Source of the DNA: Myxococcota bacterium
Lineage (GTDB): Bacteria; Myxococcota_A; SURF-8
Direction: 5' to 3'
DNA: 64,000 bases
NCBI GenBank assembly: GCA_965140415.1
Contig: OZ223209.1
Coordinates: 2,560,001-2,624,000 of the forward strand
The notes beneath the pieces were generated by a model that was not told the origin of the DNA, ran no database searches, and worked only from the letters and a program-made list of their open reading frames with translations. The translations under genes were made by a program, and so were the position numbers. This document shows positions 1-47,223 of the stretch, in pieces. Every line of letters begins with the position of its first letter. Within the stretch, counting starts at the first letter, position 1.

Positions 1-1602
1 GTAAGACGAGGTTCTCTGGAGCTGGCAGGAACCAATCTGGATCTGGTCTTTGATTCCGTTGAAATGATGCGAGGAATGCTCGATAAAGTACGCAATGCAA
101 CCGAGCAATCGACTTCTATCCAGCCAACAGAAGAACTTGAAGAACACCTTGTTCGCTTGAATGCCGCAATTGAAGGCGAGGAAATTCCGGAAAAGGACGA
201 AATAAAGGCTGAAGCGGGCGACCGATTGGGTGAAGTGTTGGTCGCAAGCGGAAGAGTAAAGCGGGAAGATGTTGATAGTGCATTAATCGACCAGGTTGGT
301 AGTGGCAAACCGATCGGTGAGCAACTTGTTTCCAAAGGAGTTGTAAAACCCAAAGAAGTTGCAAAGGCGATCCGTGCTCAGAATAAGGCTCAAGCCCAGG
401 CCAAGATTAAAGAAACTGTGAAAGTCGATCTGGAAAAAGTTGACGATCTGGTTGAAATGATCGGTGAGCTGGTGATCGTCGAATCGATGGTGGCCAATCT
501 GCCGGAAATCGCGCGAATCGTCAACCCTGCGGCTCGAAACTATCTTGGTCAACTAACCAAAATTACAAGAGATCTTCAAATCGTCGGCATGGGAATGCGC
601 ATGGTTCCGGTGCGTGGCGTTTTCCAGAAAATGGCTCGTATGGTTCGCGATCTGTCCAGGAAGGGCGGAAAGAAAATCAATTTCGTTCAATCGGGTGAAG
701 GTACGGAAATGGATCGCAGTATGGTTGAACAGATCAGTGATCCACTTGTTCACATGATACGAAACTCCGTCGATCATGGGATCGAGTCCGTTGAAGATCG
801 TTTAAAGGCAGGCAAATCGGAAACCGGGGTGATTCATCTTAGCGCTTACCATGAAGGTGGAAGCATTGTGATTGAGATTGCTGACGACGGTAAAGGGTTG
901 GATCGTGAAGCGATTCTTGCCAAAGCGATTAAAAATCAATTGATCAAAGAAAATGACAATCTATCCGAAGGTGAGATCTTTAATTTGATCTTTGCTCCGG
1001 GTTTTTCAACGGCAAAGAAAGTGACAGAAATCAGCGGGCGTGGAGTTGGCATGGATGTTGTTCGACGCAATATCGAAGCCATGCGAGGGCGGGTAATCAT
1101 CTCTTCCAAAGCTGGGAAGGGGAGTACCTTCAAACTTACACTGCCGCTGACTCTCGCGATCATCGACGGCATGTTGGTTTCATCTGGTGATGAGCGATAC
1201 ATTATACCGACTCTTTCCATCATCGAATCGATCAAGCCGGATGCTTCCATGTTGTCAACTTATGGAGGTAAGGGAGAGCTGATCAATGTTCGAGGTGAAA
1301 TTCTTCAACTCGTGCGTTTGGATCGGTTGTTCAATATTTCCGGAGCGAAACAGGAGCCAACCGATGCGCTGGTTGTGATTCTTGAAAGCTATGGGAAGAA
1401 AATCGGTTTATTGGTTGATGATGTTCTTACCCAGCAGCAGGTGGTTATCAAGAGTCTTGGTGAGGGTATGCAGCAAATGAAGTTCGTTTCCGGTGCGGCG
1501 ATTCTGTCTGATGGTCGCGTTGGCTTGATTTTAAATGTAGAGGAAATCGGTTCGATTATAATGGATGGAAAATTTGGTTCGGCAAAGAAAGATCCGAGTT
1601 GA
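1..1602 (+). CDS. cheA: Chemotaxis histidine kinase CheA (5'-truncated by window edge)
   Basis: Frame open from base 1. Dimerisation region (VKVDLEKVDDLVEMIGELVI), HATPase motifs (HMIRNSVDHGIE, DDGKG, FAPGFST, GRGVGMDVV) and C-terminal CheW domain. Confidence 0.96.
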   Translation, partial: VRRGSLELAGTNLDLVFDSVEMMRGMLDKVRNATEQSTSIQPTEELEEHLVRLNAAIEGEEIPEKDEIKAEAGDRLGEVLVASGRVKREDVDSALIDQVGSGKPIGEQLVSKGVVKPKEVAKAIRAQNKAQAQAKIKETVKVDLEKVDDLVEMIGELVIVESMVANLPEIARIVNPAARNYLGQLTKITRDLQIVGMGMRMVPVRGVFQKMARMVRDLSRKGGKKINFVQSGEGTEMDRSMVEQISDPLVHMIRNSVDHGIESVEDRLKAGKSETGVIHLSAYHEGGSIVIEIADDGKGLDREAILAKAIKNQLIKENDNLSEGEIFNLIFAPGFSTAKKVTEISGRGVGMDVVRRNIEAMRGRVIISSKAGKGSTFKLTLPLTLAIIDGMLVSSGDERYIIPTLSIIESIKPDASMLSTYGGKGELINVRGEILQLVRLDRLFNISGAKQEPTDALVVILESYGKKIGLLVDDVLTQQQVVIKSLGEGMQQMKFVSGAAILSDGRVGLILNVEEIGSIIMDGKFGSAKKDPS

Positions 1603-32691: not shown

Positions 32692-32734
32692 CCAAAAACA
32701 AATGGGCTAGAGGCATTTCTTCCTCTAACCCATT
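32692..32734 (-). terminator. Intrinsic terminator downstream of tRNA-Arg
   Basis: Minus strand AATGGGTTAGAGG-N8-CCTCTAGCCCATT then TGTTTTTG; the one mismatch is G.U on the minus strand. Confidence 0.7.
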
Positions 32735-32742
32735 GTTATGTC

Positions 32743-32819
32743 TGGTACGCCTACCCAGATTCGAACTGGGAACCAACGGGTTCGAAGCCCGGTACTCTAT
32801 CCAGTTGAGCTATAGGCGC
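32743..32819 (-). tRNA. tRNA-Arg(UCG)
   Basis: Minus strand folds as a cloverleaf: GCGCCTA/TAGGCGT acceptor, GCTC/GAGT D-arm, CTTCGAA anticodon loop, TTCGAAT T-loop, encoded CCA. Confidence 0.95.
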
Positions 32820-32820
32820 A
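32781..32820. repeat. att core, left copy (tRNA 5' half through anticodon loop)
   Basis: TTCGAAGCCCGGTACTCTATCCAGTTGAGCTATAGGCGCA, identical to 46875-46914. Confidence 0.95.
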
Positions 32821-32843
32821 CATGCTCACGACGAACGACGCGA

Positions 32844-32872
32844 ACTATATGGCACGACGAAGGAATTGTCAA
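32844..32872 (-). promoter_or_regulatory. Element-borne sigma70 promoter driving the restored tRNA
   Basis: Minus strand TTGACA-N17-TATAGT ending 24 bp before tRNA G1. Confidence 0.75.
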
Positions 32873-32920
32873 TTCTTTCCGATGTCGAAAAGCGTCTGAT
32901 TCACCCGCTACATAGCAATA

Positions 32921-32939
32921 TTGGACCAGAATTGGACCA
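32921..32939 (+). promoter_or_regulatory. Candidate integrase arm-type sites (left)
   Basis: TTGGACCA twice at 11-bp period; matched by (C/T)TGGACCA twice at 46751-46769. Confidence 0.6.
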
Positions 32940-33064
32940 AAACCAGAACGCACCTTGAACATTCCTACCACCTACATCCGTCATCCTGCAAATTATTCCC
33001 TGTTTTCTTGCATTTCTTTTTTTCGCTTCCATGCCTGTAGAATGGGGACAAGAAAGGAGCGGTT

Positions 33065-34192
33065 ATGTCCAAACCGACAAGGCACGGAAACAGATTGAGG
33101 ATAAGGTGGATGGATGAGAACGGGAAAAGGCATTATGAAAGCTTCCCCTTGGACCAGTATGATCTCGCGGCTCTCATGCTGAAGCGCCATAAACAAGCGG
33201 TAGAGGAAATCAAGATGTGTCTTTGTACCGGCAGCGTGCCTAAGAGAACCTTCAGTCAGTTGGCCGATTACTGGCTTGAAGTCTACGCGCCAACAAAACG
33301 CTCGTATCGTGACGATAAGAGCATAATCGACGCGCACCTTCGCCCCACCTTCGGTAAGATGCAGCTTTCCGACATAGGTGTCCAACACGTGGACAGATAT
33401 CGCGCTGCACGGTCCCATCTGGCGGTTAAAACCCTAAGAAATCACATCGTTTTGTTCAAGTCGATGCTGAAAAGAGCTTTTGAAATAGGGTGGCTACGAT
33501 CAGTACCACCTATCAAGCCGCCGAAAGTGCCCAAAAACGGTCAGGATTTCAACTATCTCAAATCGAAGGATGAAATCCGCAGATTCCTTGTAGCGGCTGA
33601 AGAAGAAGGACAGCTTATCTATACTCTCTACAAGACCGCTGTTTTCACGGGAATGCGCGTGGGAGAACTTACGGGTCTGCGATGGGATGATATTGATTTC
33701 GCAAGACGAATTATTACCGTTCAACGTAGTTTCAACAAGCCAACGAAGAACAGTGAGATTCGCCATGTTCCTATCGTTGATGTTTTCTTAGATGATCTGC
33801 ATAAACTGGCCTTGAATCGCCCCCATCCCATGATCGTATTTCCGAATCAGAGAAACAATATGCAGTGCCAGAAGGCGCGAGCCTTCAATGAGATTTTCCA
33901 CAGAGTTTTGAAAAGAGCCGAATTTCCGGAAGTGGAGAGAAACGGAAAGATGCGTCCATACATCCGTTTCCATGACCTACGCCATACATTTGCCAGCCAT
34001 TGGTTGATGGAAGGCGGCGATATTTTCAAGCTACAACGCATTCTGGGTCACAAGTCGCAGGAAATGACACAGCGATACGCACATCTTTCCCCGGATGCAT
34101 TTTCAAAGGATTTTGGGCTGTTTGGCGGCAGGGGAGACATGGACACAGGGAAAGTCTTGGACTTAGCAAAAACGGGGACCAACAGCAACTAA
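33065..34192 (+). CDS. Tyrosine integrase
   Basis: TGMRVGEL, PTKN, FHDLRHTFAS, LGHKS and QRYAHL (R-K-H-R-H-Y); N-terminal arm-binding-like segment. Confidence 0.95.
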   Translation: MSKPTRHGNRLRIRWMDENGKRHYESFPLDQYDLAALMLKRHKQAVEEIKMCLCTGSVPKRTFSQLADYWLEVYAPTKRSYRDDKSIIDAHLRPTFGKMQLSDIGVQHVDRYRAARSHLAVKTLRNHIVLFKSMLKRAFEIGWLRSVPPIKPPKVPKNGQDFNYLKSKDEIRRFLVAAEEEGQLIYTLYKTAVFTGMRVGELTGLRWDDIDFARRIITVQRSFNKPTKNSEIRHVPIVDVFLDDLHKLALNRPHPMIVFPNQRNNMQCQKARAFNEIFHRVLKRAEFPEVERNGKMRPYIRFHDLRHTFASHWLMEGGDIFKLQRILGHKSQEMTQRYAHLSPDAFSKDFGLFGGRGDMDTGKVLDLAKTGTNSN

Positions 34193-34230
34193 AACCGCGC
34201 AATCGATTGCGCAAGCGAAGGAGGTAAGCA

Positions 34231-34437
34231 ATGCAAATTGAAAACAGTATTTTAACGTACAAGGAAGCCAGTGAGTATCTAAACATCAAGCTCGCGACCC
34301 TTTATGGTCTCGTTCACGAGAAACGTATTCCCCATTTTCGGCTTGGGGCGCGCATGGTTCGGTTTCGCCAATCCGAATTGGATCGATGGATGGAGGAAAA
34401 GTATGTCGAAGCGAAGGCGATGGAAAGCCATGCCTGA
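34231..34437 (+). CDS. Excisionase/HTH_17 family protein
   Basis: LTYKEASEYLNIKLATLYGLV...IPHFRLG...RFRQSELDRW; RBS GGAGG. Confidence 0.9.
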   Translation: MQIENSILTYKEASEYLNIKLATLYGLVHEKRIPHFRLGARMVRFRQSELDRWMEEKYVEAKAMESHA

Positions 34438-34464
34438 GGACGCAAACAGCGGCATGGCCAATGC

Positions 34465-34537
34465 CGAAAAGAGAACCGCCCCTGGCGGGGGGCGGCTCTT
34501 CTAAAACTTGGCGTGATGGGATATCACGCGCTCAGCA
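34465..34537 (-). ncRNA. Candidate counter-transcribed RNA between xis and rep
   Basis: Minus strand TTGGCA-N18-TATAGT (34572-34543), hairpin GCGTGAT/ATCACGC, then an 11-bp GC-rich hairpin with one G.U followed by CTTTT. Confidence 0.45.
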
Positions 34538-34643
34538 CCCTCACTATAGCGGAATATCCCCTCTCATGCCAACTGAAATCGAAAGGAAAATGCTCAGATG
34601 AGCGAGGTCTACAAGTATCAATTTCAAACGAGAGGAGTGAGCT

Positions 34644-35444
34644 ATGGCCAGCAGACACCTTTTAGTTCTCGGAGGAGTACAGAAACATCTGTACAAATTG
34701 ATCGAACGCTGGATAAACGGGGAGGATATCGAGTCATTCGATAAATACGAACGAAGAGCGATAACTCTCTACCAAATTGGTGAGGAGAAACAAGCAGGAA
34801 GGCTTTATGCCTGTGCGAACAATAAAGATCATCCTCTCAGTCGATTTGGTTATTACTGTCGCAACAGATTATGTCCGGGATGTGGAAGTTACATTTCCAG
34901 ACAGTATTTCTACAAGCAGCAAAAAGCTATCAAGAAAATGAGGAATCCCAAAGCAATTCTTTTCACGATCTATTCTTTTGGTATGAACGATCTCGTAGAA
35001 ACCATCGATCTCTTCAATGAGGCAAAGCGGAAGATCAGTCGACGGATAGCTTTCAAGCAAGCCGTTCGCGCCATGTCAGGTGTGATAGAGCCGAAACTAT
35101 CCGAGGATGGTCAACGATTCGCGGTCCATTCGCATGCAGCAGTGGATGTGGATGAGGACTATTTCGATATCGATGAATTGAACGCCATATGGAAGAAGTA
35201 TACCCATGGACGAGGAAAGATCGAGTTTCAGTGGGATGAGGACATTAGAGAAGGGGACGAAGAAAAATTCGCGTGGTATGGAAGCAAAGAACACACTTGG
35301 TCGCCGGAACCGAATTTTCTGAATGACGACTGGATCGAATATCTCCGGAAGGGAATCAAATCAAAACGCCTGTACTTCCATTACTCTCCAGGAAGCTCCA
35401 AAAAAAAGGGCGTGGAATTGAAGGGTGAAAGACGATGCGCTTGA
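34644..35444 (+). CDS. Rolling-circle replication initiator (Rep_1-like HUH endonuclease)
   Basis: CRNRLCPGC zinc motif, ILFTI (motif 1), VHSHAAV (HUH), AWYGSK (YxxK). Confidence 0.8.
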   Translation: MASRHLLVLGGVQKHLYKLIERWINGEDIESFDKYERRAITLYQIGEEKQAGRLYACANNKDHPLSRFGYYCRNRLCPGCGSYISRQYFYKQQKAIKKMRNPKAILFTIYSFGMNDLVETIDLFNEAKRKISRRIAFKQAVRAMSGVIEPKLSEDGQRFAVHSHAAVDVDEDYFDIDELNAIWKKYTHGRGKIEFQWDEDIREGDEEKFAWYGSKEHTWSPEPNFLNDDWIEYLRKGIKSKRLYFHYSPGSSKKKGVELKGERRCA

Positions 35445-35469
35445 CAGCAATAGTCTTTAATATTATAAT
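35441..35469 (+). promoter_or_regulatory. Perfect consensus sigma70 promoter
   Basis: TTGACA (35441-35446)-N17-TATAAT (35464-35469). Confidence 0.8.
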
Positions 35470-35539
35470 GAATACAGGTAGTTACGATATTTTGCCCTGC
35501 GCAATCGATTGCGCGGACACAACATCAAACGATGGCCAG

Positions 35540-36637
35540 ATGAAAAGGAATCCTTTCCAACTCAGCCTTTTCGATAGAAATCAAAACGACATTAGAGTTG
35601 AGAATAGCGATGGTTCAATCAGTAGGGTGAAACAAGGCTCCCGCTGTTCCTGCGGTTCGAATCAATCCTGCGAACACTTCAGGCAAGCCCGTCTCTACCT
35701 CGATATGGATCGGGGGCTTTTCTATGACGGCAAAAGCGGATTTCACAAGTCAATTCGTCTCGCGGAGGTTGAGCGCTCCCTTGCTTATGCCCGCATACTT
35801 GATCGCTACAAGAAAGGCACGGCTCGTTCCTATCTTCGAGGTATCTGGGCCGAGGAAACCAGAAATCTCGATCTTCTTGCTCGTTTCTACGATGGAACGC
35901 CAACAGAAGAACTCATTGAACTGTTCTGCCGTAGCTGTAAAGATTGGCAGTGCCCTGAAGACGTAGGGATATTTTCTCGTCGCTGGCTTGAGATTCATCT
36001 TCGTTTCGGTTGCAATCCAAGTGCTGATTGGGAAGTAAGCTATCCTTGGCCAAACGAGGAGAACATCAAGCTAACCATCGCCCAGATGATTGAGGCGGAT
36101 GATTTCGATTCGCTTCTGGAAATGGTTGTCTGTGCAACGAGTTTCGGGCCAACTTCGACTCGATATCGAAAGGCTGTCCGATTTGCGCTTGTTGAAGAAG
36201 TAATGAAGCGCGCAAAGTTGCTGAACGTCCCGCCTGTGGTCGAAAAGCTGAAGGCAACATCATATCACAGTGAGGAATTGGTGGCCCTCTGGCGCATCCT
36301 GGCGGGCAAACGGAACAGTGGGGATGACGAGTACTGTAACAAACCAGTTCAAGGTCGAGAACAAATGGATGTGCCTTTCGTTGAAGACTACGTTTTCGAT
36401 ATGCACACCCGCGAAGGTAAACGACGCCTGAGAAAAGCTGGTCATTTGCTCGCTTGGGAAAAGCCTATGGCGGCAGGAATCGACCTTCGGTATTCGGGGG
36501 CGGAGGCTGGAACTCTTTGGAGATACCTTGCATGGGAGCAACATGGGAGAATCGATGTCCCGTGGGAAGCTGTCAAACTTGATGAAGAACTTTCACTGGT
36601 ATGGAAAAGCCTCATTGGAGGGAGGTTGACGACATGA
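35540..36637 (+). CDS. Hypothetical protein: SWIM-type zinc finger plus RarA/MgsA C-terminal-like helical region
   Basis: CSCGSNQSCEH (CxC..CxH); KSGFHKSIRLAEVERSLAY resembles RarA SAxxKSIR; DYVFDMHTREG near the end. Start placed downstream of the promoter at 35441. Confidence 0.6.
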   Translation: MKRNPFQLSLFDRNQNDIRVENSDGSISRVKQGSRCSCGSNQSCEHFRQARLYLDMDRGLFYDGKSGFHKSIRLAEVERSLAYARILDRYKKGTARSYLRGIWAEETRNLDLLARFYDGTPTEELIELFCRSCKDWQCPEDVGIFSRRWLEIHLRFGCNPSADWEVSYPWPNEENIKLTIAQMIEADDFDSLLEMVVCATSFGPTSTRYRKAVRFALVEEVMKRAKLLNVPPVVEKLKATSYHSEELVALWRILAGKRNSGDDEYCNKPVQGREQMDVPFVEDYVFDMHTREGKRRLRKAGHLLAWEKPMAAGIDLRYSGAEAGTLWRYLAWEQHGRIDVPWEAVKLDEELSLVWKSLIGGRLTT

Positions 36638-37683
36638 AACCGGAACAGGCGGAAAAGCCGATACAAACCCAAAATCTGTATTCTCGGCCCCAAAAACAGG
36701 AGGCTATTCCAGACAATCTTCGCTTCCTTTGGCGGGACGGAATCATTGAAAGCGAGAGCGAAAAGGAACGTCAGGCAAACGAGGAATACCTGAAGCACTC
36801 CCATGCCGAAAGCACTCTCGAAATCTACGGATACGATTGGCGAGAGTTTCTGGCTTTCTGTTCTAAAAGCGACCCTCCCGTTGCATCGCTTCCAGCCGAA
36901 CCGGAAACGATCCTGAGCTTTCTTCGCTGTCAGGCTGAACAGAATCACAAGCCTTCAACAATCACTCGGAAACTGTCGGCCATCCGGTGCTACCATCTGG
37001 AGGCAGAAGTTGAAACGATTCCGACCGACAATCCCAAGGTCAAGCGGATGATGGCGGCGATCCGGCGATTGAAAGGCGTTATGCCGGAACAGAAGAAACC
37101 GCTAACCATTCAACGCCTGAATGCGATCATCGAGAAATGCCCCCCGACCTTGTGCGGCTGTCGGGATAAAGCCATGTTGCGGCTCGGCTTTGCCGGTGGC
37201 TTTCGCAGATCGGAACTGCTTGCCTTGCGGATGGAGGATATCGATCTTTCTGAGGTCGGGGTTGAGATTTTAATAAGACGTTCGAAAACCGATCAAGAAG
37301 GTTATGGAAGGCTGTTGTCCATACCCAGGAAGGACGTTCCCTTGACCTGTCCTGTCGCTGCATTGGAAGAATGGATCGAACGGGGAATGATCCGAGAAGG
37401 CCCCATCTTTCGACGGCTGTATAAAGGCGACAAAGTAGGCGAAACGGCGATCACGGGGCGTTCGTTCGCGAAAATCATCGACAAGTATGTGGAGCAGGTT
37501 GGACTCGATCAGGAGGACTTTAGCCCCCACGCCTTGCGCGCGGGATTTGTTACGAGCGCATACAGAAGCGGAGCCTCCATCGCTCAAATTCAGGGCGTTA
37601 CCGGACACAGAAGCGCGCAATCCGTTCATCGCTACGTTCGCGGCATCGATGGCTTTCGAGAGTACCCGAATATCGAGGAATAA
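36634..37683 (+). CDS. Second tyrosine recombinase (Cre-like, with SAM-like N-terminal domain)
   Basis: GFAGGFRRSEL, RRSKTDQEG, TCPVAAL, FSPHALRAGF, TGHRS and HRYVR motifs; ATGA coupling with the upstream gene. Confidence 0.92.
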   Translation: MKPEQAEKPIQTQNLYSRPQKQEAIPDNLRFLWRDGIIESESEKERQANEEYLKHSHAESTLEIYGYDWREFLAFCSKSDPPVASLPAEPETILSFLRCQAEQNHKPSTITRKLSAIRCYHLEAEVETIPTDNPKVKRMMAAIRRLKGVMPEQKKPLTIQRLNAIIEKCPPTLCGCRDKAMLRLGFAGGFRRSELLALRMEDIDLSEVGVEILIRRSKTDQEGYGRLLSIPRKDVPLTCPVAALEEWIERGMIREGPIFRRLYKGDKVGETAITGRSFAKIIDKYVEQVGLDQEDFSPHALRAGFVTSAYRSGASIAQIQGVTGHRSAQSVHRYVRGIDGFREYPNIEE

Positions 37684-38147
37684 TGAGCGAGGACTTTTCC
37701 CTCATTCGCCAACTGGCCGCAGAGATGGCAAGCAATCTCTTCTACGATGAAATCGAGGGGATCACCCGCTACCATGAAGAAATCGGTTGGCATCTGGCTG
37801 CGCTCTACGAGGTTCATAGGGCGGTGATGGGCTGTGAGTATCCGCTTGCAAACGAAGCAATTTTAGCTGAAGTTCGCGAACGGCTGAACGATGTTATCGA
37901 GGCAAAAAGCTACGAGGACGCGAGAGACGTCATCCTGTTGATCGATGGGGAGGAAAACATATCTGTTCTGCTTCGCTGGTTGGCTGAAACTCCGAATTTC
38001 GTATCCTTCGTGGAAGAAGCGATTGAGGATAAACTTGACGGCGACCGCCCAAGATTTTCCCGGCTTCTCTATTGGGGGAACATGCGGTTCAGGCAGGAAG
38101 TAGGACTTAGCTTGTTGGATGCGTTGCGGGGAATAAATCAGGGGTAA
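37683..38147 (+). CDS. Small acidic helical hypothetical protein
   Basis: TAATG coupling to the recombinase; about 30 D/E against 15 K/R by my count. Confidence 0.7.
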   Translation: MSEDFSLIRQLAAEMASNLFYDEIEGITRYHEEIGWHLAALYEVHRAVMGCEYPLANEAILAEVRERLNDVIEAKSYEDARDVILLIDGEENISVLLRWLAETPNFVSFVEEAIEDKLDGDRPRFSRLLYWGNMRFRQEVGLSLLDALRGINQG

Positions 38148-38328
38148 TTGGTGTACGATAGGCTCAGAGTTTACCCGAAAACAAGATCAAGGTTGCATTT
38201 AAAAGTCCCGTCATTCATTTCGCAGAAACAAAATTTATCATCATGATATTGCAGAGGAATCATTTGATATTTGTGTGTTGCTTGTTCGTAGAAAGCATAT
38301 GATGTTTGCGCCAAAATCCCAACCTGTC

Positions 38329-38784
38329 TCAAAAATCAATGTCTTCAAGTTTTAGGTCTTCTCCCCGACGCGGTAGCCATAATGGCGCAAGTTCCCATTC
38401 AGGTAATTTTGCCCCCGGAATAGCTTGAGATCGGATAATGGCCTCCAGAACACCATTTACACGCCATTCCTCCATGCGACGAGATATGGTTTGAAAAGGA
38501 GGGTAGCCCATCAAAGAGATATCTCTAAGCGACAGCTGCGTCTTTGCCCTAAGAAGGATGGCTTCTGCCATAATTCGATCTGGTACGCGAGGTCTTCCCC
38601 TTCGGCATCGTCTTTCGGGAATATGGGGCTTGATCTTGGCCCATGCTTCATCAGAAAGAATCTCTTTATGTGCAGCTTCGGGCAATTTGTATTTACCTTT
38701 GATGGTTGATGGCAACATGATTGGCTCCCTGATACAATGACGGATAACTTTCTTCATTTTAACTGGGTGTTTGGTGCACATCAA
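38329..38784 (-). CDS. IS5-family transposase N-terminal (DUF4096-like) domain without DDE core
   Basis: LSDEAWAKIKPHIP...GRPRVPDR...EAIL...YPPFQTISRRMEEWRVNGV. Start uncertain. Confidence 0.7.
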   Translation of the reverse strand: MMCTKHPVKMKKVIRHCIREPIMLPSTIKGKYKLPEAAHKEILSDEAWAKIKPHIPERRCRRGRPRVPDRIMAEAILLRAKTQLSLRDISLMGYPPFQTISRRMEEWRVNGVLEAIIRSQAIPGAKLPEWELAPLWLPRRGEDLKLEDIDF

Positions 38785-38896
38785 GGGATTCTATTAAAAG
38801 TATTCGACACGTTAGGCATGGTCTGGTAGACTCTAAGGCGGAGTGTAAAGGTCGAAATATTCGGCTGATACGTTGCTTATCGCAAAGTAGGAGACA

Positions 38897-41800
38897 ATGG
38901 GAAAGTCGTTGGAATTAAACGAGTTATTGGAAGGACTCGGTTACTTGGGGTCGGACTATTTCCTCAAGGGGGCAGAGCTTCAGCGTCACCCGGCCTACGC
39001 CCATTTTTTCCGAAAAGCCAGCGAAGACCTTCATCTTAAAGGCGTGTACTGCCTTAGAGCGAGACCTGAATGTAAAATAGATCAGGATACCGTTGTTCCT
39101 GTCGTTTATGTGGTCGAGCTAGATTCGGATGATCCTGAATCAATTCAAAAGTGGCACCGAAAGGTTTGGAATCAGAGCATCGTTCCTTTTGTTTTACTGG
39201 CCACGCCGTCAAGTTTCAGAGTGTATCGTGGCTTCAGGCATTCGGACGATATAAAAAAAGATACAGTTCTTGATGATCTTCGAGATGCCGCAGAAATACT
39301 GGAGCGTTTCAAGGATTTTTCGGCAAGGTCGATAGATTCCGGTGCAATTTGGGAGCGTATGCAGAAGCATCTTGACCTTGATGCAAGGGTTGACAACCGA
39401 CTCCTTAAAAACCTTGAAGATCTTGGCAACAAACTTATTAAGGAGCAAGGTTTAAACAGAAGGGTTGCCCACACTCTCATTGGGAAATATGTCTTCCTCA
39501 GATATTTAAGAGACCGAAAGCACCTATCGGATAAAAAGTTCCAAGATTTTGGAATCAGTCCTAATGATGTATTCGATTCCCAGGCAAAAATCAGTTCCCT
39601 GTACGAATTGGACGAAAAGCTAAACAACTGGCTCAATGGTGCAATTTTTCCTCTCCCAAAGAGAAGTGGTGAAATCAAAGAGGAGCATGTTAAGGAAGTT
39701 GCGAGAGCTTTTCGAGGGGAAAACCCTAAACACAAACAGACAGAAATGTTTGATGTATTCAATTTTGAGTACGTTCCGGTCGAAACTCTTTCCGCTGTTT
39801 ACGAGCAATTCCTTCATTTCGATGGCAAGGGGAAAGAGCAGGGTGCTTTCTATACCCCTGTCCATCTGGTCAATTTCGTTCTTGAAGAGCTTGATACTAA
39901 ACGGCCATTAAGAGACGGTATGAAAGTACTTGATCCCTCTTGTGGGTCAGGAGCTTTTCTTGTTCAATGTTACCGACTATTGATCGAACGCGAAGTACAG
40001 CCAAGCCCCGAAAAAAAGATCCTTCCCTCCAGATTGCGAGAACTACTGGAAAGGAACATCTTTGGACTGGATATTGATGGAGATGCTTGTAGTGTTACTG
40101 AATTGAGTTTGGCACTTACTTTACTTGATTATGTAGATCCGCCGGATTTGAAACGCTATCCAACCTTTAAACTGCCTGCATTACGAAACAGAAACATTTT
40201 TCATTGCGAAGGCGGTTTTTTCGATGAGTCCTCTGCCTGGAATCAATCTGAATCTGCGATAAATGGATATGATTGGATTGTTGGGAATCCCCCGTGGATA
40301 AAACTCAATTCCTCCATGAAAGGTAAAAGTGCAATATCTGCTCTGGAGTGGATGCGTGAGAAGCAGGAGGATTGCCCTACGGGTGATAATCAGATTGCAC
40401 AAGCATTTGCATGGAAAACCTCTTTGCATCTTTCACCGGAAGGTCTGGCTGGATTGGTAATGCCAGCAATGACGCTCTTTATGCCCAAGGCTAAGCGTTT
40501 CCGCCATCATTTTTTCGAGAATAATGATGTGTGGGCTATTGCCAATTTAGCAAACTTCACCTATCGGCTTTTTGCGGGTAGAGGAAGACTGCCAACAATG
40601 TTGCTGTTTTTCAACAACTCAGTTCCTGATGCAAGTGAAGAACAGTTTTTGACTGTATTTTCCCCTTTCATAGCGGAACAAGAAGCCAGTCGAGATTACA
40701 ATAATGGAGCTTGGAGCATAACAGTTGAACAAAACGCAATCAAACAAATTCCAAGAGACAAAGTAGCATCAGGCGACAGTTTGCCTTGGAAAGCTGCTAT
40801 GTGGGGGTCTTGGAGAGATTTGAATCTATTAAAAAGGATCGAAAGTCGATTCCCCTCCTTTTTAGATTTTGCTTCACAAAAAGAATTATCTATTCATCAG
40901 GGTATAGAGCTTAGAGAATGCGGCTCGTCGCAGGCAGTAGAACCAATGCCAGAATTGGCGGGTCAACCCATTATTGATATGGGAAAAATTAAGAAGAACA
41001 CTCGTAATCTATTTCATCTGCCGGATAATATACTATTTCCAATACCTCCAGAAAAAGCTAATATCAGAATTAGAGGAGGGAAAAGGGCACTCAGAACGAG
41101 TATACCACCGCATATTTTTGTTGATGCCTCACGTAATTATTCAATTTATTCAGACAGTCTTGTCCATATCCCAGCCCGCCAAATCGGAATTGCTGGACAT
41201 GATGAGAAATTACTAAAAGCACTTTCATTGTACTTGTCGTCAGATTTTGCAAAATACCATCAGTTTCTTTTCTCCGCGCAGTGGGGCATTCAAAAATCCA
41301 TTTCCAATCTTGAGACGTTACTAAAATTGCCCATACCTTTTTCCATAATCAATACATCACATATCAATTCATGGGCAAAGCTGCACAATGAATTTGTAAA
41401 AGCGTCGAAGCACATACATGGTGATTTGTTTGTCCAGAATTCATCGAAAAAGAATTATTCAGAGATATTGGATGATTTGAGGAAATCTCTGAATAATCGT
41501 GTATACGAATTGTTAGGATTGAATAACAGTGACCGTAACCTTGTTAAAGATCTCGTGAATGTTCGTATGCATCTTGTACAGGGCAAAGTGCCCAAAGCTG
41601 CAACACGGAGTGCAACCAAGTCTGAGATGGTGGAATACTGCCAGATTCTTGCAAAGGAGCTTGATGAATTTTTAGGCGTAAAGAAGCGTCATGATGTGAA
41701 TGTGTATGCAGGAACTAATAAGGCACTTTTGGTTGTGAGGAATCAGCGTGAACCTCGACCGAACGCAATAATCGATGTAACGCAGGATGAGCATTCATTC

Positions 41801-41995
41801 AATGCCGCTCTAGAAAAACTTGGAAATCTGGTTTCAAAAAGAAAGCAGTGGATGTACTTTGACAGAGGCTTACGGATATATAGCGGTGACCGCATTTGCT
41901 TGTTCAAACCGAAAAGCCGTTTGCATTGGCTTAAAAGCCAGGCGCTTCTCGATGCAGATGCAATTATTTCTGATCTCGTATCCCAGAAAGCTTGA
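38897..41995 (+). CDS. Large amino-(N6)-DNA methyltransferase (Type IIG/Eco57I-like architecture)
   Basis: GAFYTP, VLDPSCGSGAFL (motif I), FGLDID, WIVGNPPW (motif IV), long C-terminal specificity region. Confidence 0.9.
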   Translation: MGKSLELNELLEGLGYLGSDYFLKGAELQRHPAYAHFFRKASEDLHLKGVYCLRARPECKIDQDTVVPVVYVVELDSDDPESIQKWHRKVWNQSIVPFVLLATPSSFRVYRGFRHSDDIKKDTVLDDLRDAAEILERFKDFSARSIDSGAIWERMQKHLDLDARVDNRLLKNLEDLGNKLIKEQGLNRRVAHTLIGKYVFLRYLRDRKHLSDKKFQDFGISPNDVFDSQAKISSLYELDEKLNNWLNGAIFPLPKRSGEIKEEHVKEVARAFRGENPKHKQTEMFDVFNFEYVPVETLSAVYEQFLHFDGKGKEQGAFYTPVHLVNFVLEELDTKRPLRDGMKVLDPSCGSGAFLVQCYRLLIEREVQPSPEKKILPSRLRELLERNIFGLDIDGDACSVTELSLALTLLDYVDPPDLKRYPTFKLPALRNRNIFHCEGGFFDESSAWNQSESAINGYDWIVGNPPWIKLNSSMKGKSAISALEWMREKQEDCPTGDNQIAQAFAWKTSLHLSPEGLAGLVMPAMTLFMPKAKRFRHHFFENNDVWAIANLANFTYRLFAGRGRLPTMLLFFNNSVPDASEEQFLTVFSPFIAEQEASRDYNNGAWSITVEQNAIKQIPRDKVASGDSLPWKAAMWGSWRDLNLLKRIESRFPSFLDFASQKELSIHQGIELRECGSSQAVEPMPELAGQPIIDMGKIKKNTRNLFHLPDNILFPIPPEKANIRIRGGKRALRTSIPPHIFVDASRNYSIYSDSLVHIPARQIGIAGHDEKLLKALSLYLSSDFAKYHQFLFSAQWGIQKSISNLETLLKLPIPFSIINTSHINSWAKLHNEFVKASKHIHGDLFVQNSSKKNYSEILDDLRKSLNNRVYELLGLNNSDRNLVKDLVNVRMHLVQGKVPKAATRSATKSEMVEYCQILAKELDEFLGVKKRHDVNVYAGTNKALLVVRNQREPRPNAIIDVTQDEHSFNAALEKLGNLVSKRKQWMYFDRGLRIYSGDRICLFKPKSRLHWLKSQALLDADAIISDLVSQKA

Positions 41996-42687
41996 TTGAG
42001 GCCGTAACGCTTATGGCAGGTATATCCAGACACAAAATCAACCAAATCGGCAAATCTGCCCTTGCAGATGAATTTCAAACCTCTTTCCTGCGAAATGCCT
42101 TGGAATTGTTATTAATCGGCTATGAAAACCTACCAACCAGTGATAGATCGAAGTGGCAGGAGGAAGAAATTACCGGCGAACTATGCAGAGAGATTCAGGA
42201 ATATCTAGATATGCCGGATTCCCCTGGTTGGACTAGACGCTATTCGCTTCATGAAGATCCGCCTGTTCATTCATCCTACAGAAAAGGAAAGAAGCGCAGG
42301 CGAATTGATTTTCGGATTGAGGAAACCCACCGACGGCCTCGCCACAAGTTCGGAGTAGAAGCAAAAAGGCTCCGTTCCGATTCCCACAATGTTGGGAAAT
42401 ACTGCGGACAAGATGGGATGGGGTGCTTTGTTTCAGGAGAATATTCGTCTCAGCAAAATATCGGCGGAATGCTTGGCTACGTTCAAAGCGGAACAGTCGA
42501 TCAGTGGGAATCCAAGGTGGGAGCAAAGATTAAGAAAGATGCAAAAACCTTGCATGTAAGGAACGGACGAACTTGGGAAAATGCTTCCGGCGCAAACCCC
42601 ATAAATCAATGCCACCTTTCCGAGCACGATAGACCGAGTTTAAATAAACCAATACTAATTTATCATCTGATGCTGAATTTCAGCTGA
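41992..42687 (+). CDS. Putative PD-(D/E)XK nuclease-like protein
   Basis: EEEITGEL...RRIDFRI...FGVEAKRL pattern; overlaps the MTase stop. Alternative start ATG 42013. Confidence 0.6.
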   Translation: MIEAVTLMAGISRHKINQIGKSALADEFQTSFLRNALELLLIGYENLPTSDRSKWQEEEITGELCREIQEYLDMPDSPGWTRRYSLHEDPPVHSSYRKGKKRRRIDFRIEETHRRPRHKFGVEAKRLRSDSHNVGKYCGQDGMGCFVSGEYSSQQNIGGMLGYVQSGTVDQWESKVGAKIKKDAKTLHVRNGRTWENASGANPINQCHLSEHDRPSLNKPILIYHLMLNFS

Positions 42688-43090
42688 CTGAAAAACTTTC
42701 ACTTCTTCAACAACCGCCTCCCATCATCCACGGTCATCATGAGTCGCTTGGGAATTCGTTTTCCCCAGTAATAAGGTGATTCCATAGCCGATATTGCAAC
42801 CCCCTCTAAAAACATTTGCCTCAAAGTTATCATAAGTTTATACTCTTATCGTTCGATGAAATTCCCTTGCGTTCTGCCTTTTGGCTGACGGCCTGACTAC
42901 CCGTGATCGAATGCATGGCTTTGCCATTGAACGAACAAAGTGGCTCACACGACGCGCGCCTATCACGCGCCGTGCTAGTCACACGTGCGCCTCTGATGGG
43001 AGGGGCGCATGTGATGGTGTGAGCCATGTTGCATGTCGCCCCTTTCTTTTAGGGGCAGATTGACGATTCTTGAAGCAAGGCGGTGCGCAT

Positions 43091-44161
43091 ATGAAACGAA
43101 TGTTTCTTTCGATTGTTCTCGTTATTCTTCTTCTGGCATGTGGCAACGATCAGACGACAAATTCACCAGATAACACGGATGGGGACGCCCCATTGACGGA
43201 CGGAGACATGGAGGACTGCCCGCCGGGGACGCATCTCTGCCCATGCTACGGCAATGATACCTGCAATGCGGGTCTTGATTGCCGCGATAGTATTTGCGTC
43301 GAAAGCGATGATACGACGGACGGAGACGGGGAGCGTGAAGTTGATGAGCCCCTTGATTCAGATGGCGATCTGCTCCCGGATGGAGATGATACAGATGGCG
43401 ATGCTTTCGATGCCGATTTTGATGAAGACTTACTCGAAAACTCTGACGGTTCGGACGGTGATTTCGAGCTTGATATAGAGCCAGATGATGAGATCGAACT
43501 TGATGACGATTTCGAGTCTGAAAGCGATCCAGAGCTTGATGAGGAAGTATCAGACGATGAAAACGGTGTCGAATACGAGCCGGATGATGAGATGGAACCA
43601 GAAGTTGATGTAGAGATTGAAACCGAGCTTGAAGCAGAACAGGAAGAAGAACCTCCATACGAACCTATCTGGAGAGATCCTGATACTCTTTTGTATTGGC
43701 CGTTGACGCGAGATGCTGGTACTTGGTCAGAGTCCGAGCAGTATTGCGAGGATCTTGAATGGGGAGGGCATTCGGACTGGCGCTTGCCGACTGTAACTGA
43801 GTTGCGCTCGCTTATTCGAGGATGCGGTGCAGACCTTGATAGCGATTGCATGGTTTTTGAGGATGATCGTGATCTTGGAGTTAACAGCCAGTGTATCTAT
43901 GAGACTTGTGACAGCATGTATTGCGTTGGAATGCAGGAGCCGTGCGAGATTGAAGAGTGTGAGAAGTGCCCTTTTGTTTATAACCAGTGCTACTGGCCGG
44001 AGGTGTTTGGTACATGTCCATCGTCGGCAGATTATTGGTCCTCGACTGCGGAGCGATGGGGCATGGAAGAGGAACACTGGTATGTAGGGTTTAAGCATGG
44101 CTCTGTCATTTGGGGACGTGACAGTTACGTTAAGGGTGCAAGATGTGTACGCAGGAGGTGA
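43091..44161 (+). CDS. Lipoprotein with acidic linker and DUF1566-like domain
   Basis: Lipobox LLAC, D/E-rich DGD linker, YCEDLEWGGHSDWRLPTVTELRSL, YWSST and ARCVR motifs. Confidence 0.82.
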   Translation: MKRMFLSIVLVILLLACGNDQTTNSPDNTDGDAPLTDGDMEDCPPGTHLCPCYGNDTCNAGLDCRDSICVESDDTTDGDGEREVDEPLDSDGDLLPDGDDTDGDAFDADFDEDLLENSDGSDGDFELDIEPDDEIELDDDFESESDPELDEEVSDDENGVEYEPDDEMEPEVDVEIETELEAEQEEEPPYEPIWRDPDTLLYWPLTRDAGTWSESEQYCEDLEWGGHSDWRLPTVTELRSLIRGCGADLDSDCMVFEDDRDLGVNSQCIYETCDSMYCVGMQEPCEIEECEKCPFVYNQCYWPEVFGTCPSSADYWSSTAERWGMEEEHWYVGFKHGSVIWGRDSYVKGARCVRRR

Positions 44162-44304
44162 CTTCAATGCGTGTAAGTGTGAGAAGTCAGGATGCGAAAA
44201 ATGATTGAGCAATCGATTGCGTGTCTTCAAACAAGAATTCGTTCTGGACGACAGGTGCAATTGTTCGGAGATTCGATACTGGTTTAGCCTTGAAGGAGGT
44301 AGGG

Positions 44305-45762
44305 ATGCTCGAACGCTTGTCTTCACTGGTCGCAATTGCGTTGCTGTCCGCTCTGGTCGCCGCGTGCAGTATCTTGGGATGGGAATACAGTTACTCTGGC
44401 CGAAAATATACGATGAGCCAAGATCACATTGACTATCACCGGGAAGTTATGGCTGATTACGAGCGAAAAACGAATTCTGCCAAGCGCGCAGGCAAGAGTG
44501 AGGCGAATATCCTGACTATGCAATGCAAGCTGCTTGAGCGTGGGTTATCAGGCGCTCCGAAGTCCTCGAATTTCACTTCTGCGACCCAGTTGCTTCAGAA
44601 GGATCGAGATAGTATTTGTCCCCAGGCACAGCAGGCGCGAAGCTCGGCTAGTGGTATTGGCGGGCCTTGCCCTGAGGGAACACATGTCATGCGAAAGCCC
44701 GATCACGAATATTGCGCAGACTCAAACCAATTTCCGAATGGGTGGTATATCGCTTGGCATGGAAAGCGTCGTATCAAGAAAAGAACCGGCAACCCTGCCA
44801 CTGACCTTTACTATCCACCGGAAGGGCTTGTGAAACGCGAGGCTGGTCAAATTGTCGGAGGCAAGAGAGGTGGTGAGTGGACGTTCTGGTATGCTAGCGG
44901 AAAGAAGAAAGCTCAGGGACGTTATGATAGTGGCAATAAAGTGGGTACCTGGAATTATTGGCGAGAAGATGGTACCCCATTAACCCCTCAAGAACTTTTC
45001 CAGTTAGCGACTGACCTGTTGGCAAACAATGGTAGAGAAAAGGCCTTGGAGCTTGCGGAAACATGCTATGGGTATTGGCCGGAGAATGGCAAATGCCAAT
45101 CGATACTTGCTCAGGCTACATGCGATGCAGATGATTTAAGTGGTTGTTATGTAGCGGCCTCAAAACTACGACAATCTGATGTCAGGGGCTTTTTGGCAAT
45201 ACATGAAACCCTCTGTCGAAACTTTCAGGCATCGTCATGCGAAGCACTCGCAATATTTTTCAAAATTGGCAGTGGACCAGCGAAGTACAACAACGGAGTA
45301 GAAATCCCGGCGAACGCATCGAAATCCAAATCGCTCTATAAGAAGGCAATGACTTATTACAAATCCGCCTGTGATTTAGGAGATGGTGCAAGTTGTGATG
45401 GATTAGCGAATGGTTACGCATCAGGCAACGGAGTCTCTAAAAACCTGCCAAAGGCAAAGATGTACTTCAGGAAAGGCTGTGAATTGAACCATTGGGCATC
45501 ATGCCGGTCTTATTCCACTCGGTTTAACTACGATGATCCTGTAGGTGCATTTGCTATGTTGACCAAAGCCTGTGAAAACGGAGATGAACTAGCGTGCAAA
45601 GACCGCGTCTATCAATTGAATGAGTCTAAACAGCTTTGTAAGCAGGGCAACAAAGATGCTTGTTTCTATCTTGGCTTAACTGTCGAAGATAAATCCAAAG
45701 CTAGAACCTACCTGAAACGATCCTGCGATCTTGGACACTCCGGAGCATGCAGCGAGTTGTAG
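44305..45762 (+). CDS. Lipoprotein with MORN-variant and Sel1-like repeats
   Basis: Lipobox VAAC, GEWTFWYASGKKKAQGRY...GTWNYW, repeated KACxxGxxxxC; RBS GGAGG before ATG 44305. Confidence 0.8.
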   Translation: MLERLSSLVAIALLSALVAACSILGWEYSYSGRKYTMSQDHIDYHREVMADYERKTNSAKRAGKSEANILTMQCKLLERGLSGAPKSSNFTSATQLLQKDRDSICPQAQQARSSASGIGGPCPEGTHVMRKPDHEYCADSNQFPNGWYIAWHGKRRIKKRTGNPATDLYYPPEGLVKREAGQIVGGKRGGEWTFWYASGKKKAQGRYDSGNKVGTWNYWREDGTPLTPQELFQLATDLLANNGREKALELAETCYGYWPENGKCQSILAQATCDADDLSGCYVAASKLRQSDVRGFLAIHETLCRNFQASSCEALAIFFKIGSGPAKYNNGVEIPANASKSKSLYKKAMTYYKSACDLGDGASCDGLANGYASGNGVSKNLPKAKMYFRKGCELNHWASCRSYSTRFNYDDPVGAFAMLTKACENGDELACKDRVYQLNESKQLCKQGNKDACFYLGLTVEDKSKARTYLKRSCDLGHSGACSEL

Positions 45763-45973
45763 GGACTGAGACATCTCTCATTCGGTTGAACAAAGAAGTT
45801 CTAAGGAATCAACTGGCTCTATAAAGCTGACATACAGCCTGACTTGACCTCATACCCGAATATAGACCGAAAGCCGCTCACAAAGCCATTACGGAGTCCT
45901 ACGGAATAATTATGAGGGTGTTGTTACTTACAATCTTGAGCCATCGATTTCGTGAAAGTAGGAGCAGGGTTGC

Positions 45974-46759
45974 TCAGGACTCAGAACCATCTTCTGAGGT
46001 GTCATCAATCGCGGATTCTTCATCCATATCTTGGTTGTAGTCAGGATCGTAATCAAGATCGCATTCAGAATCTACCTTATCGATTGCTTCAATCGCAGCG
46101 TTGGTTTGCTGCCTGTTGTATCCAAGACAACTCAAAGTGAAACGCAGAAGCTGTCTCTTGTTGACCAGTTTGCCAAAGTAGACAGGAAACGGGGAAAGGG
46201 ATGGTTCATTTCTGAAGTTGTAAATCGTCCGTGCACCCATCTGGAGGTATTCTGCAACATTTTTTTGAGCGATTTCCACCTTTCCTTTTTTTCTGCCGTC
46301 AACATTTGGTGGCTTCAGTTCTTTGAGGGACTCTACAATGATGGAATCAACTGTGTCTGGATCGTTATCCAAAGAAAGCTCCTCATCATTGAGAGAGACC
46401 CATAGTGGTTTTGCAGTACGAACAAGCTCAATCGTTAATTCCTCGTGCCGCTCGGGTGGAATGGGTCTTTTTTTTCTCCAAGTTCCCCAGTATAGTTGAG
46501 CTATGGTTTCACTAAGTTTCACGATACGCCAGTGGCGGAGACGCTCGGAATCAATTGCATCAAGGTGATCTTTTTTGAGGACATAGAGTAATTTGAGGAT
46601 GCGTTTTTCCTTCGCGTTTGCTTTACCAATATCAGAGAGGCGCAATGAGGCACAGAATCGAAGGAGCCTTGCAAGGAACTTATCAAGCTCGACTATGAAC
46701 GTATGGTAATCTTCTTCGTCGATCTCTTTCATTTTTTTGTCATCCGTTTTCTGGACCAT
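45974..46759 (-). CDS. Hypothetical protein with HTH-like segment and acidic tail
   Basis: NVAEYLQMGARTIYNFRN resembles a helix-turn-helix; 261-aa ORF at the element's right end. Confidence 0.55.
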   Translation of the reverse strand: MVQKTDDKKMKEIDEEDYHTFIVELDKFLARLLRFCASLRLSDIGKANAKEKRILKLLYVLKKDHLDAIDSERLRHWRIVKLSETIAQLYWGTWRKKRPIPPERHEELTIELVRTAKPLWVSLNDEELSLDNDPDTVDSIIVESLKELKPPNVDGRKKGKVEIAQKNVAEYLQMGARTIYNFRNEPSLSPFPVYFGKLVNKRQLLRFTLSCLGYNRQQTNAAIEAIDKVDSECDLDYDPDYNQDMDEESAIDDTSEDGSES

Positions 46760-46769
46760 CGTTGGACCA
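46751..46769 (+). promoter_or_regulatory. Candidate integrase arm-type sites (right)
   Basis: CTGGACCA and TTGGACCA at 11-bp period, ~105 bp inside the right att. Confidence 0.6.
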
Positions 46770-46801
46770 AATCCCAGGCAAAGGTGGAAAGAATGCCATG
46801 C

Positions 46802-46830
46802 TTGACAAGGAAGTATACTGGGAATACTAT
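46802..46830 (+). promoter_or_regulatory. Outward-facing sigma70 promoter at the element's right end
   Basis: TTGACA-N17-TACTAT pointing at the right att. Confidence 0.65.
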
Positions 46831-46874
46831 GAATATGGAAGCGTGAAAAGGCGGAAAAGGGCTAGGTAGGAATT

Positions 46875-46914
46875 TTCGAAGCCCGGTACTCTATCCAGTT
46901 GAGCTATAGGCGCA
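46875..46914. repeat. att core, right copy (orphaned host tRNA 5' half)
   Basis: Identical to 32781-32820; no tRNA 3' half follows on the minus strand. Confidence 0.95.
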
Positions 46915-47223
46915 AAACAACTTGCCAGTATGTACGTCAGATTTCGATCCTTGTCAAATTTTAGTGCTAATCCGACCTGAACAATTTTTCCGCGTTGGGC
47001 CACAAACTGTTTCAGTTTAAGGGTAAGCATTGCAGATCTTCTAAAAAATCAGCATGTTAGCTCGCTCTTCAATGTTGTGCGTATGCTTTCTTCACATCAC
47101 TGCTTCAATAAAGCCTTAACATTTTCTTAACGCGGTGCTAATATTCCTATTCTTTTCCGCCAACGTACAGAAAATTAACCTGTTGTCCAAAGTGACTTTG
47201 TTTACTGGCAAGCGAGGATAATC

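Follow-up and report, generated by a model that had tools for sequence, protein, structure and literature searches.

A 14.1-kb integrative element that appears to rebuild a tRNA-Arg(UCG) gene from the 5' side and to carry a tRNA-type promoter

Elements that integrate into tRNA genes usually restore the 3' part of the gene, a premise from which the first-pass annotation of the locus described here started and which published counts uphold: among the 3919 tRNA- and tmRNA-gene islands in Table 1 of the Islander paper, 3760 carry a 3' tDNA fragment and 159 a 5' fragment (Hudson et al. 2015, PMC4383910). Anticodon-centred sites are given there for 2083 islands (PMC4383910), and it is the usual 3' case that is described for Phage_Finder (PMC1635311). 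Archaeal elements, including CalSub-E1, recombine with the 5'-distal regions of tRNA genes (Krupovic and Bamford 2008, Krupovic 2010, Gaudin 2014 and Cossu 2017, as cited in PMC6563490). Here we analyzed a 64,000-nucleotide stretch of the genome of a Myxococcota bacterium (assembly GCA_965140415.1, contig OZ223209.1, positions 2,560,001 to 2,624,000; referred to as the window herein), in which a 14.1-kb island (about 32821-46914) occupies the gene for tRNA-Arg(UCG). Going by the tabulated Islander counts, a 5'-restoring arrangement is known and uncommon (∼4% of the islands), and its existence here is not news. What the locus adds is that the island is a lone flip inside a clade of integrases of the 3' type and that the origin of its promoter appears to be traceable. 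We consider it probable that the island is an integrative element that sits in the only tRNA-Arg(UCG) gene of its host with the target reversed, brings the 5' half of the gene together with a promoter, and acquired this attachment site (attP) by capture.

The window holds one tRNA gene as annotated by ARAGORN, an intact tRNA-Arg(UCG) on the reverse strand (32743-32819), which is also the single Arg-tcg gene among the 47 tRNA genes of the genome (5,975,757 bp in a single contig, with the island integrated). As the first-pass annotation had noted with coordinates that all proved correct, the 5' end of this gene through its anticodon loop lies in a 40-nt direct repeat, recovered by a repeat search and by BLAST, whose left copy (32781-32820) is 100% identical to a right copy at 46875-46914, 14,094 bp away. 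The repeat consists of tRNA positions 39 to 1 plus base -1. Position 39, its inner limit, is the anticodon loop's last base, and the limits of the repeat fall exactly at the 5' end of the tRNA and at the 3' edge of that loop. When the tRNA was compared with the whole genome by BLAST, only these two copies were found, the other two matches being of 14-15 nt with E >1; the first-pass annotation had left room for further copies of the gene, and there are none. Since the topology of recombination places everything between the flanking repeats on the insert, the 5' half of the intact tRNA and the promoter beside it would be island DNA. The intact gene would thus join an element-side half (positions 1-39, in the left attachment site, attL) to host DNA that provides positions 40-77 and an intrinsic-terminator-like hairpin just 3' of the tRNA (32701-32734, reverse strand; 13 pairs, of which 6 are G-C, with a T-rich tail behind them), as had been proposed in the first pass. 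The right identity block (attR) would contain the stranded 5' half of the host gene (46875-46913, reverse strand). At the edge of the left block, the anticodon loop reads TTCGAAG on the forward strand (32781-32787) and includes the 6-bp palindrome TTCGAA; it is here that we infer the crossover and its overlap to lie. A tandem array with a third copy of the tRNA half was ruled out, as none occurs elsewhere in the genome, and so was an island of the 3' type on the left side of the tRNA, as the genome holds no further copy of the 3' half. The T stem of the host-side 3' half (32743-32780, reverse strand) is CCCAG/CTGGG, and in all of the 13 tRNA-Arg(UCG) genes of relatives that were compared this stem is GCAGG/CCTGC-like; the 5' half deviates from relatives at 1-4 positions only.

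Just inside the left end, a tyrosine integrase gene (int; 33065-34192, forward strand) begins at a distance of 245 bp from the 5' end of the tRNA, with transcription leading away from the latter. Its product, the likely cognate enzyme, matches PF00589 with 107.9 bits and has an N-terminal SAM-like domain preceded by ∼60 residues. Residues R183, H288, R291, H314, and Y323 are invariant in an alignment of 26 sequences, and we take them to be the R-H-R-H-Y catalytic set. An excisionase-family helix-turn-helix (HTH) protein gene (xis; 34231-34437, forward strand; HTH_17, and TIGR01764 with 58.9 bits) follows, and the repeats also enclose genes for a Rep-like protein and for a type IIG restriction enzyme. 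Compared with the rules by which Islander recognizes islands (PMC4383910), the locus has a full tRNA gene and a cognate, co-oriented fragment on the same replicon, with the end fragment (positions 1-39) correctly placed upstream on the 5' side of the tDNA and with a tyrosine integrase inside a 14,094-bp interval that falls within 2-200 kb. Repeat topology together with int, xis, and the candidate arm sites indicates that element DNA would supply the 5' part of the regenerated gene, which is what defines the 5'-restoring class.

To place this geometry among related elements, we used the 6206 integrase homologues with E ≤0.001 among 8000 scored and assembled three sets of loci: the best 80 from species-representative genomes, the best 80 from metagenomes, and 29 from the phylum of the window. 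The closest homologues, 53-60% identical, are on metagenome contigs, and for the genome-contig and metagenome loci the best identity among the matches listed was 48-51%. At 22 of the 29 in-phylum loci (42-51% identity), a tRNA gene lies 98-241 bp upstream of int, always on the strand of int; at the remaining seven no tRNA is in view, and a reversed one occurs at none of the 29. Among the named or metagenomic matches listed, 13 loci have ≥42% identity, and these divide into six with the same 3'-facing geometry and seven with no tRNA in view. In a FastTree phylogeny of 182 integrases, the window protein falls into a fully supported group of 40 rows made up of 28 3'-facing loci, 11 unlabelled ones, and itself. 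The sister integrase (L034) has a sub-threshold tRNA-like CAU element on the strand of int (19.4 bits, E 0.49), and L040, for which both ends are in view, is bounded by a 47-nt repeat of tRNA-Ala positions 29-75, a 3' block. Among nine confirmed islands of relatives, the block includes the anticodon loop in all but L100 (positions 52..74); 3'-type blocks begin at positions 29-33 and 5'-type blocks finish at 38-43. Many relatives have an excisionase homologue just downstream of int, and a weak homologue of the Rep-like protein is encoded beside L194, the closest in-phylum integrase. On these comparisons, the island is the lone orientation flip in an otherwise 3'-type clade, in which the recombination layout of the clade would be kept and the target gene reversed.

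The first-pass annotation had asked whether homologous integrases also duplicate tRNA 5' halves. Within the clade of the window protein, all 28 members with a tRNA in view are 3'-facing, and two distant relatives do duplicate the 5' half. Among loci with integrases of about 26-34% identity, at least 33 of 159 have a co-oriented intact tRNA ≤58 bp (in one case 113 bp) past the int stop codon, such that the tRNA 5' end faces the element. An upstream repeat of the 5' half was found at two of the 17 such loci with ≥1.5 kb of flank: L051, where the tRNA-Arg(tcg) at 10916-10992 is matched at positions -2..43 by a repeat 10 kb away, and L067, where the tRNA-Gln at 10903-10977 is matched at positions -2..38 by a repeat 4.2 kb away. 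L085 has a 3' repeat downstream instead. The int-then-tRNA geometry is clustered on the tree, with 7 changes as compared with 24 in shuffles. In these distant groups, use of the 5' side seems to be a property of entire integrase clades, and any promoter of the tRNA is predicted to lie inside the end of int.

The layout shared with the 3'-type clade extends to candidate arm-type sites. Pairs of an 8-nt motif, on the strand of int and with 11-bp spacing, lie just within each end of the island: TTGGACCA-gaa-TTGGACCA in the P' arm (32921-32939, forward strand; copies at 32921 and 32932) and CTGGACCA-tcg-TTGGACCA in the P arm (46751-46769, forward strand; copies at 46751 and 46762), the latter 106-124 bp to the left of the core. 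A tandem pair of this kind (TTGGGCCA; consensus YTGGRCCA) occurs upstream of int in 6 of 36 relatives. Both arms of L040 (42% identity) bear tandem CTGGGCCA/TTGGGCCA pairs whose distances from the anticodon loop resemble those in the window, with a P arm of CTGGGGCCA-cga-TTGGGCCA about as far from the loop as the P arm here. Repeated arm-type motifs, all putative, thus flank the attP core on both sides, as expected of a lambda-type (heterobivalent) integrase. The commonest target of the clade is tRNA-Met(CAU), with the anticodon stem-loop TCGGG CTCATAA CCCGA, at 17 of the 36 3'-facing loci. The corresponding stem-loop of the window tRNA is CCGGG CTTCGAA CCCGT, so that its CGGG/CCCG stems are those of the tRNA-Met target and read the same in both orientations. 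In tyrosine recombinases, it is the asymmetry of the overlap that sets orientation; a palindromic TTCGAA overlap would remove this cue, a suggestion that draws on one case.

Both ends of the island carry promoter-like sequences directed at a copy of the tRNA 5' half. Ahead of the intact gene, on the island side, we found the sigma-70-type TTGACA-N17-TATAGT reported in the first pass (32844-32872, reverse strand), which matches the consensus at 11/12 positions, with its -10 element ending 24 nt ahead of the 5' end of the mature tRNA. It is one of just 130 sites in the genome, both strands counted, that match at ≥11/12 positions with a spacer of 16-18; the chance expectation of such a site in the 36-nt placement window upstream of a tRNA is ∼0.0004. 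In the 245-bp spacer between tRNA and int, it is the sole promoter-like site on the tRNA strand. The weaker TTGACA-N17-TACATA that had been placed behind the stranded half is likewise there (46929-46957, reverse strand; 9/12), with its -10 element ending 14 nt before that half; this site was read from the sequence, because the promoter scan demands T as the last -10 base and omits it. At its tRNA genes, the host has promoters of the sigma-70 type. An exact TTGACA occurs at -75 to -31 of 10 of the 47 host tRNA genes (∼0.008 expected per tRNA), several have cTTGACA-N17-TAnnnT/A 12-24 nt before the mature 5' end, and tRNA-Pro(cgg) and tRNA-Arg(ccg) have -10 variants that resemble TACATA. By its sequence, the stranded promoter fits the host tRNA promoter pattern, and the intact tRNA would now be driven by the putative sigma-70-type promoter borne by the element. 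A third promoter-like site, TTGACA-N17-TACTAT (46802-46830, forward strand; 10/12), has the hexamers of the host tRNA-Met promoter and points out of the right end; in a circular form of the island it would be expected to read across attP into int. In the integrated state, the promoter scan gave no promoter-like site upstream of int itself. This arrangement suggests that integrase expression may be switched on by circularization.

To trace where the island-side promoter came from, we aligned the regions upstream of tRNA-Arg(UCG) on the island side, on the attR side, and in six relatives (G001-G006), of which G004 represents the nearest relative genus in the same family and G006 belongs to the same order. 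The segment from -13 to -78 (32832-32897, reverse strand), which contains the promoter and leader, is homologous to the native upstream region of G004. The local alignment score was 50, whereas shuffles averaged 17.1 and reached 24 at most (z 14.8), and in register and without gaps 51 of 78 positions are identical. The island side shares 35/78 positions with G006, and G004 shares 39/78 with G006; all other pairs reach 14-29/78, among them those of the attR side with each relative and those of G001, G002, G003, and G005 with all others. Above -78, no similarity to G004 was detected (388 of 500 shuffles reach the score). The G004 tRNA-Arg(UCG) gene is flanked by genes for an S41 peptidase, MscS, a permease, a carboxyl transferase, and MoxR. 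Because these flanks are housekeeping genes and no related integrase is present, the G004 locus is, as judged from its gene content, an ordinary unoccupied one. We therefore read 32832-32897 as host DNA captured into attP, and the element most likely picked up the 5' half of the tRNA gene, promoter included, in a related host. The first-pass annotation had named the finding of this promoter as native host sequence in relatives as an observation that would tell against an element-borne origin. The homology to G004 is, formally, such an observation, but we do not take the segment for host DNA still in place, because DNA between the repeats belongs to the insert, the ends of the repeat mirror those of the 3'-type relatives, and the distances from the block to int and to the arm sites fit the attP of the clade. 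What homology to a native promoter does remove is the idea of a regulatory takeover specific to the element.

Taken together, the exact repeat, the gene content, the geometry of the clade, the arm motifs, and the homology of the promoter lead us to propose the following series of events, in which the position of the crossover, the activity of the promoter, and the route and direction of capture are inferred. The ancestor would come from the clade that uses the 3' side, mostly of tRNA-Met(CAU). It would have entered the anticodon stem-loop of tRNA-Arg(UCG) in a related host as a secondary site and in the opposite orientation, a step that the common CGGG-N7-CCCG stems and the palindromic TTCGAA loop may have favored. 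Imprecise excision could then have carried off the 5' half of that tRNA gene along with ∼78 nt of its native promoter, which would now stand between the core and the P' arm sites. The resulting attP would read: tandem P-arm sites, ∼105 bp, the anticodon-loop core, tRNA positions 32 to 1, the 78-nt tRNA promoter and leader, tandem P'-arm sites, and int. Tyrosine-integrase recombination in the anticodon loop of the present host would insert this element with the target gene in the unusual orientation; integration would rebuild the tRNA from the 5' side, set the sigma-70-type promoter of the element ahead of it, and leave the 5' half and promoter of the host 14 kb off. Only tentatively, and with clear doubt, would we go on to call the island a case, caught in the act, of a tRNA-targeting integrase gaining a new site by backward use followed by imprecise excision.

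Several points weigh against capture from another host, and some of them speak for an explanation that we judge unlikely, namely that the promoter at 32844-32872 is the host's own and in place, the island having entered upstream of it in a non-canonical way and the right 5' half being the attP of the element or an unrelated partial duplication. The similarities between upstream regions are graded like the relationships of the species (island-G004 > G004-G006 ∼ island-G006; GlnRS identities of 74, 72, and 69%), and an in-place native promoter or vertical descent would show the same gradation: the native, unoccupied loci of relatives carry a homologous promoter in the same register, graded as the species tree predicts. 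A donor of the same lineage would have extended the repeat into the promoter, so that capture has to assume a different donor with an identical 5' half. The attR-side upstream region resembles no relative's promoter (16-23/78), and G004 homology breaks off at -78, ∼22 nt short of the first arm-type repeat, as it might at the junction of an insertion. The search for an empty locus covered a genus made up of this genome and a class of 10 genomes and gave no counterpart: within 20 kb, the tRNA-Arg(UCG) loci of G004, G006, and G001 have no flanking genes in common with the surroundings of the island (24-56 kb of the window). The sole link to the G004 locus is an orthologue of its carboxyl transferase 42 kb to the left of the tRNA here. 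A match of 20/22 with two gaps between the attR flank (-75..-55) and the distal G004 upstream region (-229..-208) was set aside as too weak, the best of 200 shuffles equaling its score. Among the other supports, the tree carries only Shimodaira-Hasegawa-like (SH-like) values from FastTree, 30 of the 36 relatives are without the exact arm-motif pattern, and the five exact TTGGACCA copies in the window, with 2.24 expected, are not significant by themselves (6 of 100 shuffles reach five); four of the five lie ≤330 bp from the junctions, and only their placement and tandem spacing are striking. Nevertheless, an insertion that makes flanking direct repeats puts all that lies between them on the insert, and an in-place promoter would demand an illegitimate insertion plus an exact 40-nt copy of a tRNA half for which it has no explanation. 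The repeat ends exactly at the tRNA 5' end and at the 3' edge of the anticodon loop, the mirror image of 3'-type blocks, and the 245-bp spacing of block and int and the layout of arm sites match the attP of the clade. Moreover, four of the five other family members (G001, G002, G003, and G005) lack this promoter type, so that a divergent native promoter such as the one on the attR side would not be unusual.

That the two 40-nt copies mark no real insertion, and arise from misassembly or by chance, is very improbable. Its one support is that contigs assembled from short reads, in three DNA runs of a single study, are interrupted at the repeat and leave the flanks unlinked. The second copy, by contrast, is exact over 40 nt and the only one in 5.98 Mb, the genome is a single contig, and integrase, excisionase, and pairs of arm sites lie just inside the ends. 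In addition, the k-mer depth of the repeat unitig in run X1 is 75, about twice that of the flanks (37.8 on the left and 27.6 on the right). This depth fits two copies, although on its own it does not tell integration apart from a circular form accompanied by an empty site. The depth of the island unitig, 44, may be noise or may reflect a slight excess of island copies. A different idea, raised in the first-pass annotation, concerns advantage: by controlling a needed CGA-decoding tRNA, the element would gain, and dependence of the host on it would guard the left end from deletion in an addiction-like manner. The tRNA is indeed single-copy, and the only plausible same-strand promoter in the 245-bp spacer is on the island side. 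However, TadA is encoded in the genome (161 bits against a cut-off of 150), as are tRNA-Arg(ACG) and tRNA-Arg(CCG). Under standard wobble rules, these cover CGA and CGG, and because all three are present tRNA-Arg(UCG) is probably dispensable for decoding, which leaves the element little leverage. The island promoter is, besides, a near copy of the native tRNA promoter type and not a regulated element promoter. Since, on precise excision, the identical half left in the host would be reunited with a host-pattern promoter, loss of the element should not cripple the gene; the idea of control or addiction is unsupported on this account, and we regard it as quite improbable. In the same genome, outside the window, tadA lies directly downstream of the gene for its substrate, tRNA-Arg(ACG), and is followed by two tRNA-Ser genes (G000:C1:4678172-4678726).

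The remaining island genes are mostly on the forward strand. Beyond xis, a Rep_1-like (rolling-circle replication) protein at 34644-35444 is a marginal assignment (PF01446, 34.6 bits against a cut-off of 33.2), and it is followed by a 400-aa protein (35435-36637) for which searches of Pfam, NCBIfam, PHROGs, and PADLOC gave no family and the best Atlas score was 0.86, a lead only. A second tyrosine recombinase (36601-37683), with Xer-like scores under the cut-offs, precedes a 154-aa protein (37683-38147) that matched nothing in the profile searches and, on the reverse strand, an N-terminal fragment of an IS5-family transposase (DUF4096; 38329-38784) that covers only profile positions 3-82 of 258. 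These three (36601-38784) stand between the int-xis-rep module and the restriction gene, which suggests a nested or decayed second element; the repeat search found no extra att-like repeat for this segment. The restriction gene itself, for a type IIG restriction enzyme-methyltransferase (38897-41995; PADLOC PDLC03603, 211 bits), is cargo and has the lowest G+C of the island (0.41-0.45). Downstream lie a 231-aa protein without a match in the profile searches (41992-42687), a protein with an Lcl C-terminal domain (Lcl_C; 43070-44161), and a Sel1-repeat protein (44221-45762), the last two assigned by profile matches. On the reverse strand, a 261-aa protein (45974-46759) has no family match and only Atlas leads below 0.9. 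Its open reading frame (ORF) lies 115 nt downstream of the stranded tRNA half and promoter, on the same strand and with no terminator predicted between them; in a circular form it would follow the captured promoter, so that in either state it would lie behind a tRNA-type promoter. We also observed a 16-nt perfect palindrome, GCGCAATCGATTGCGC, of which the genome holds two copies only, both in the island; a third copy in the island is a 14/16 variant, and three of the five genome copies of the 12-nt core are inside the island. The sites, at 34197-34212, 35499-35514, and 44207-44222, are intergenic after int and before the Sel1 gene, while the copy at 35499 lies past the Rep-like stop codon and within the start of the 400-aa ORF. 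From their sequence, these palindromes are candidates for operators or origins.

To either side of the island lies ordinary chromosome, with genes for HisRS, NAD synthase, a peptidyl-prolyl isomerase (PPIase), and an MFS transporter on the left and for a CehA-like hydrolase, a GlnRS-type synthetase, DsbD, and MurB on the right. No phage virion structural or packaging genes were found in the island: its PHROGs matches are confined to integrase, excisionase/HTH, transposase, methyltransferase, and families of unknown function. It does not qualify as a prophage, and viral contigs offered no close relative of the integrase (best 32% over most of the protein). Neither Pfam nor NCBIfam recognized a conjugation gene (relaxase, coupling protein, type IV secretion system, or FtsK-like Tra), with the limit that the four family-less island proteins might hide a divergent one.

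An apparently intact island and relatives of opposite orientation with the same arm layout make a natural pair for studying what sets the orientation of a target. The evidence, from sequence, for a promoter copied from the tRNA gene of a related host supports the model in which new attP sites arise by capture through imprecise excision. If this is true, tRNA promoters would travel between lineages with such elements, which might account for the patchy occurrence of the promoter type among the relatives of the host, and the palindromic overlap should let the present element integrate in both orientations. For annotation, it follows that tRNA promoters beside integrases may be mobile DNA, and in the engineering of integrases an overlap whose palindrome permits both orientations would be a practical concern.

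Among described systems, the 5'-fragment class of Islander is the closest in that it, too, has a co-oriented 5' fragment upstream of an intact tRNA gene, a tyrosine integrase between the two, and an anticodon-centred att site. It differs from the window in that here the promoter appears traceable to the native locus of a relative and the clade of the integrase is otherwise of the 3' type; the passages of the Islander paper that treat this class are silent on promoters and on the origin of the element-borne half (PMC4383910). The archaeal elements that recombine with 5'-distal regions share with the window the use of the 5' side of the tRNA, in archaeal hosts and with archaeal promoters. A search of the literature for an explicit statement that an element supplies the promoter of its tRNA found none. 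The title of a 2002 report by Zhao and Williams, known to us by citation only, names this very reversal. The distant int-then-tRNA relatives resemble the window in that the tRNA 5' end faces the element. In those loci, however, int reads towards the tRNA, and any promoter must lie in the last codons of int, whereas in the window int diverges from the tRNA across a 245-bp spacer, and the two occupy separate parts of the tree. Lastly, the usual anticodon-loop elements, such as L040 and the anticodon-centred islands of Islander, have in common with the window a block with one edge at the loop, int within ∼250 bp, arm repeats, and an int-xis module. In those elements the block extends from the loop as far as the 3' end, with the host promoter left in charge, whereas in the window it extends from the loop in the other direction, to the 5' end, and, as we propose, brings a promoter with it.

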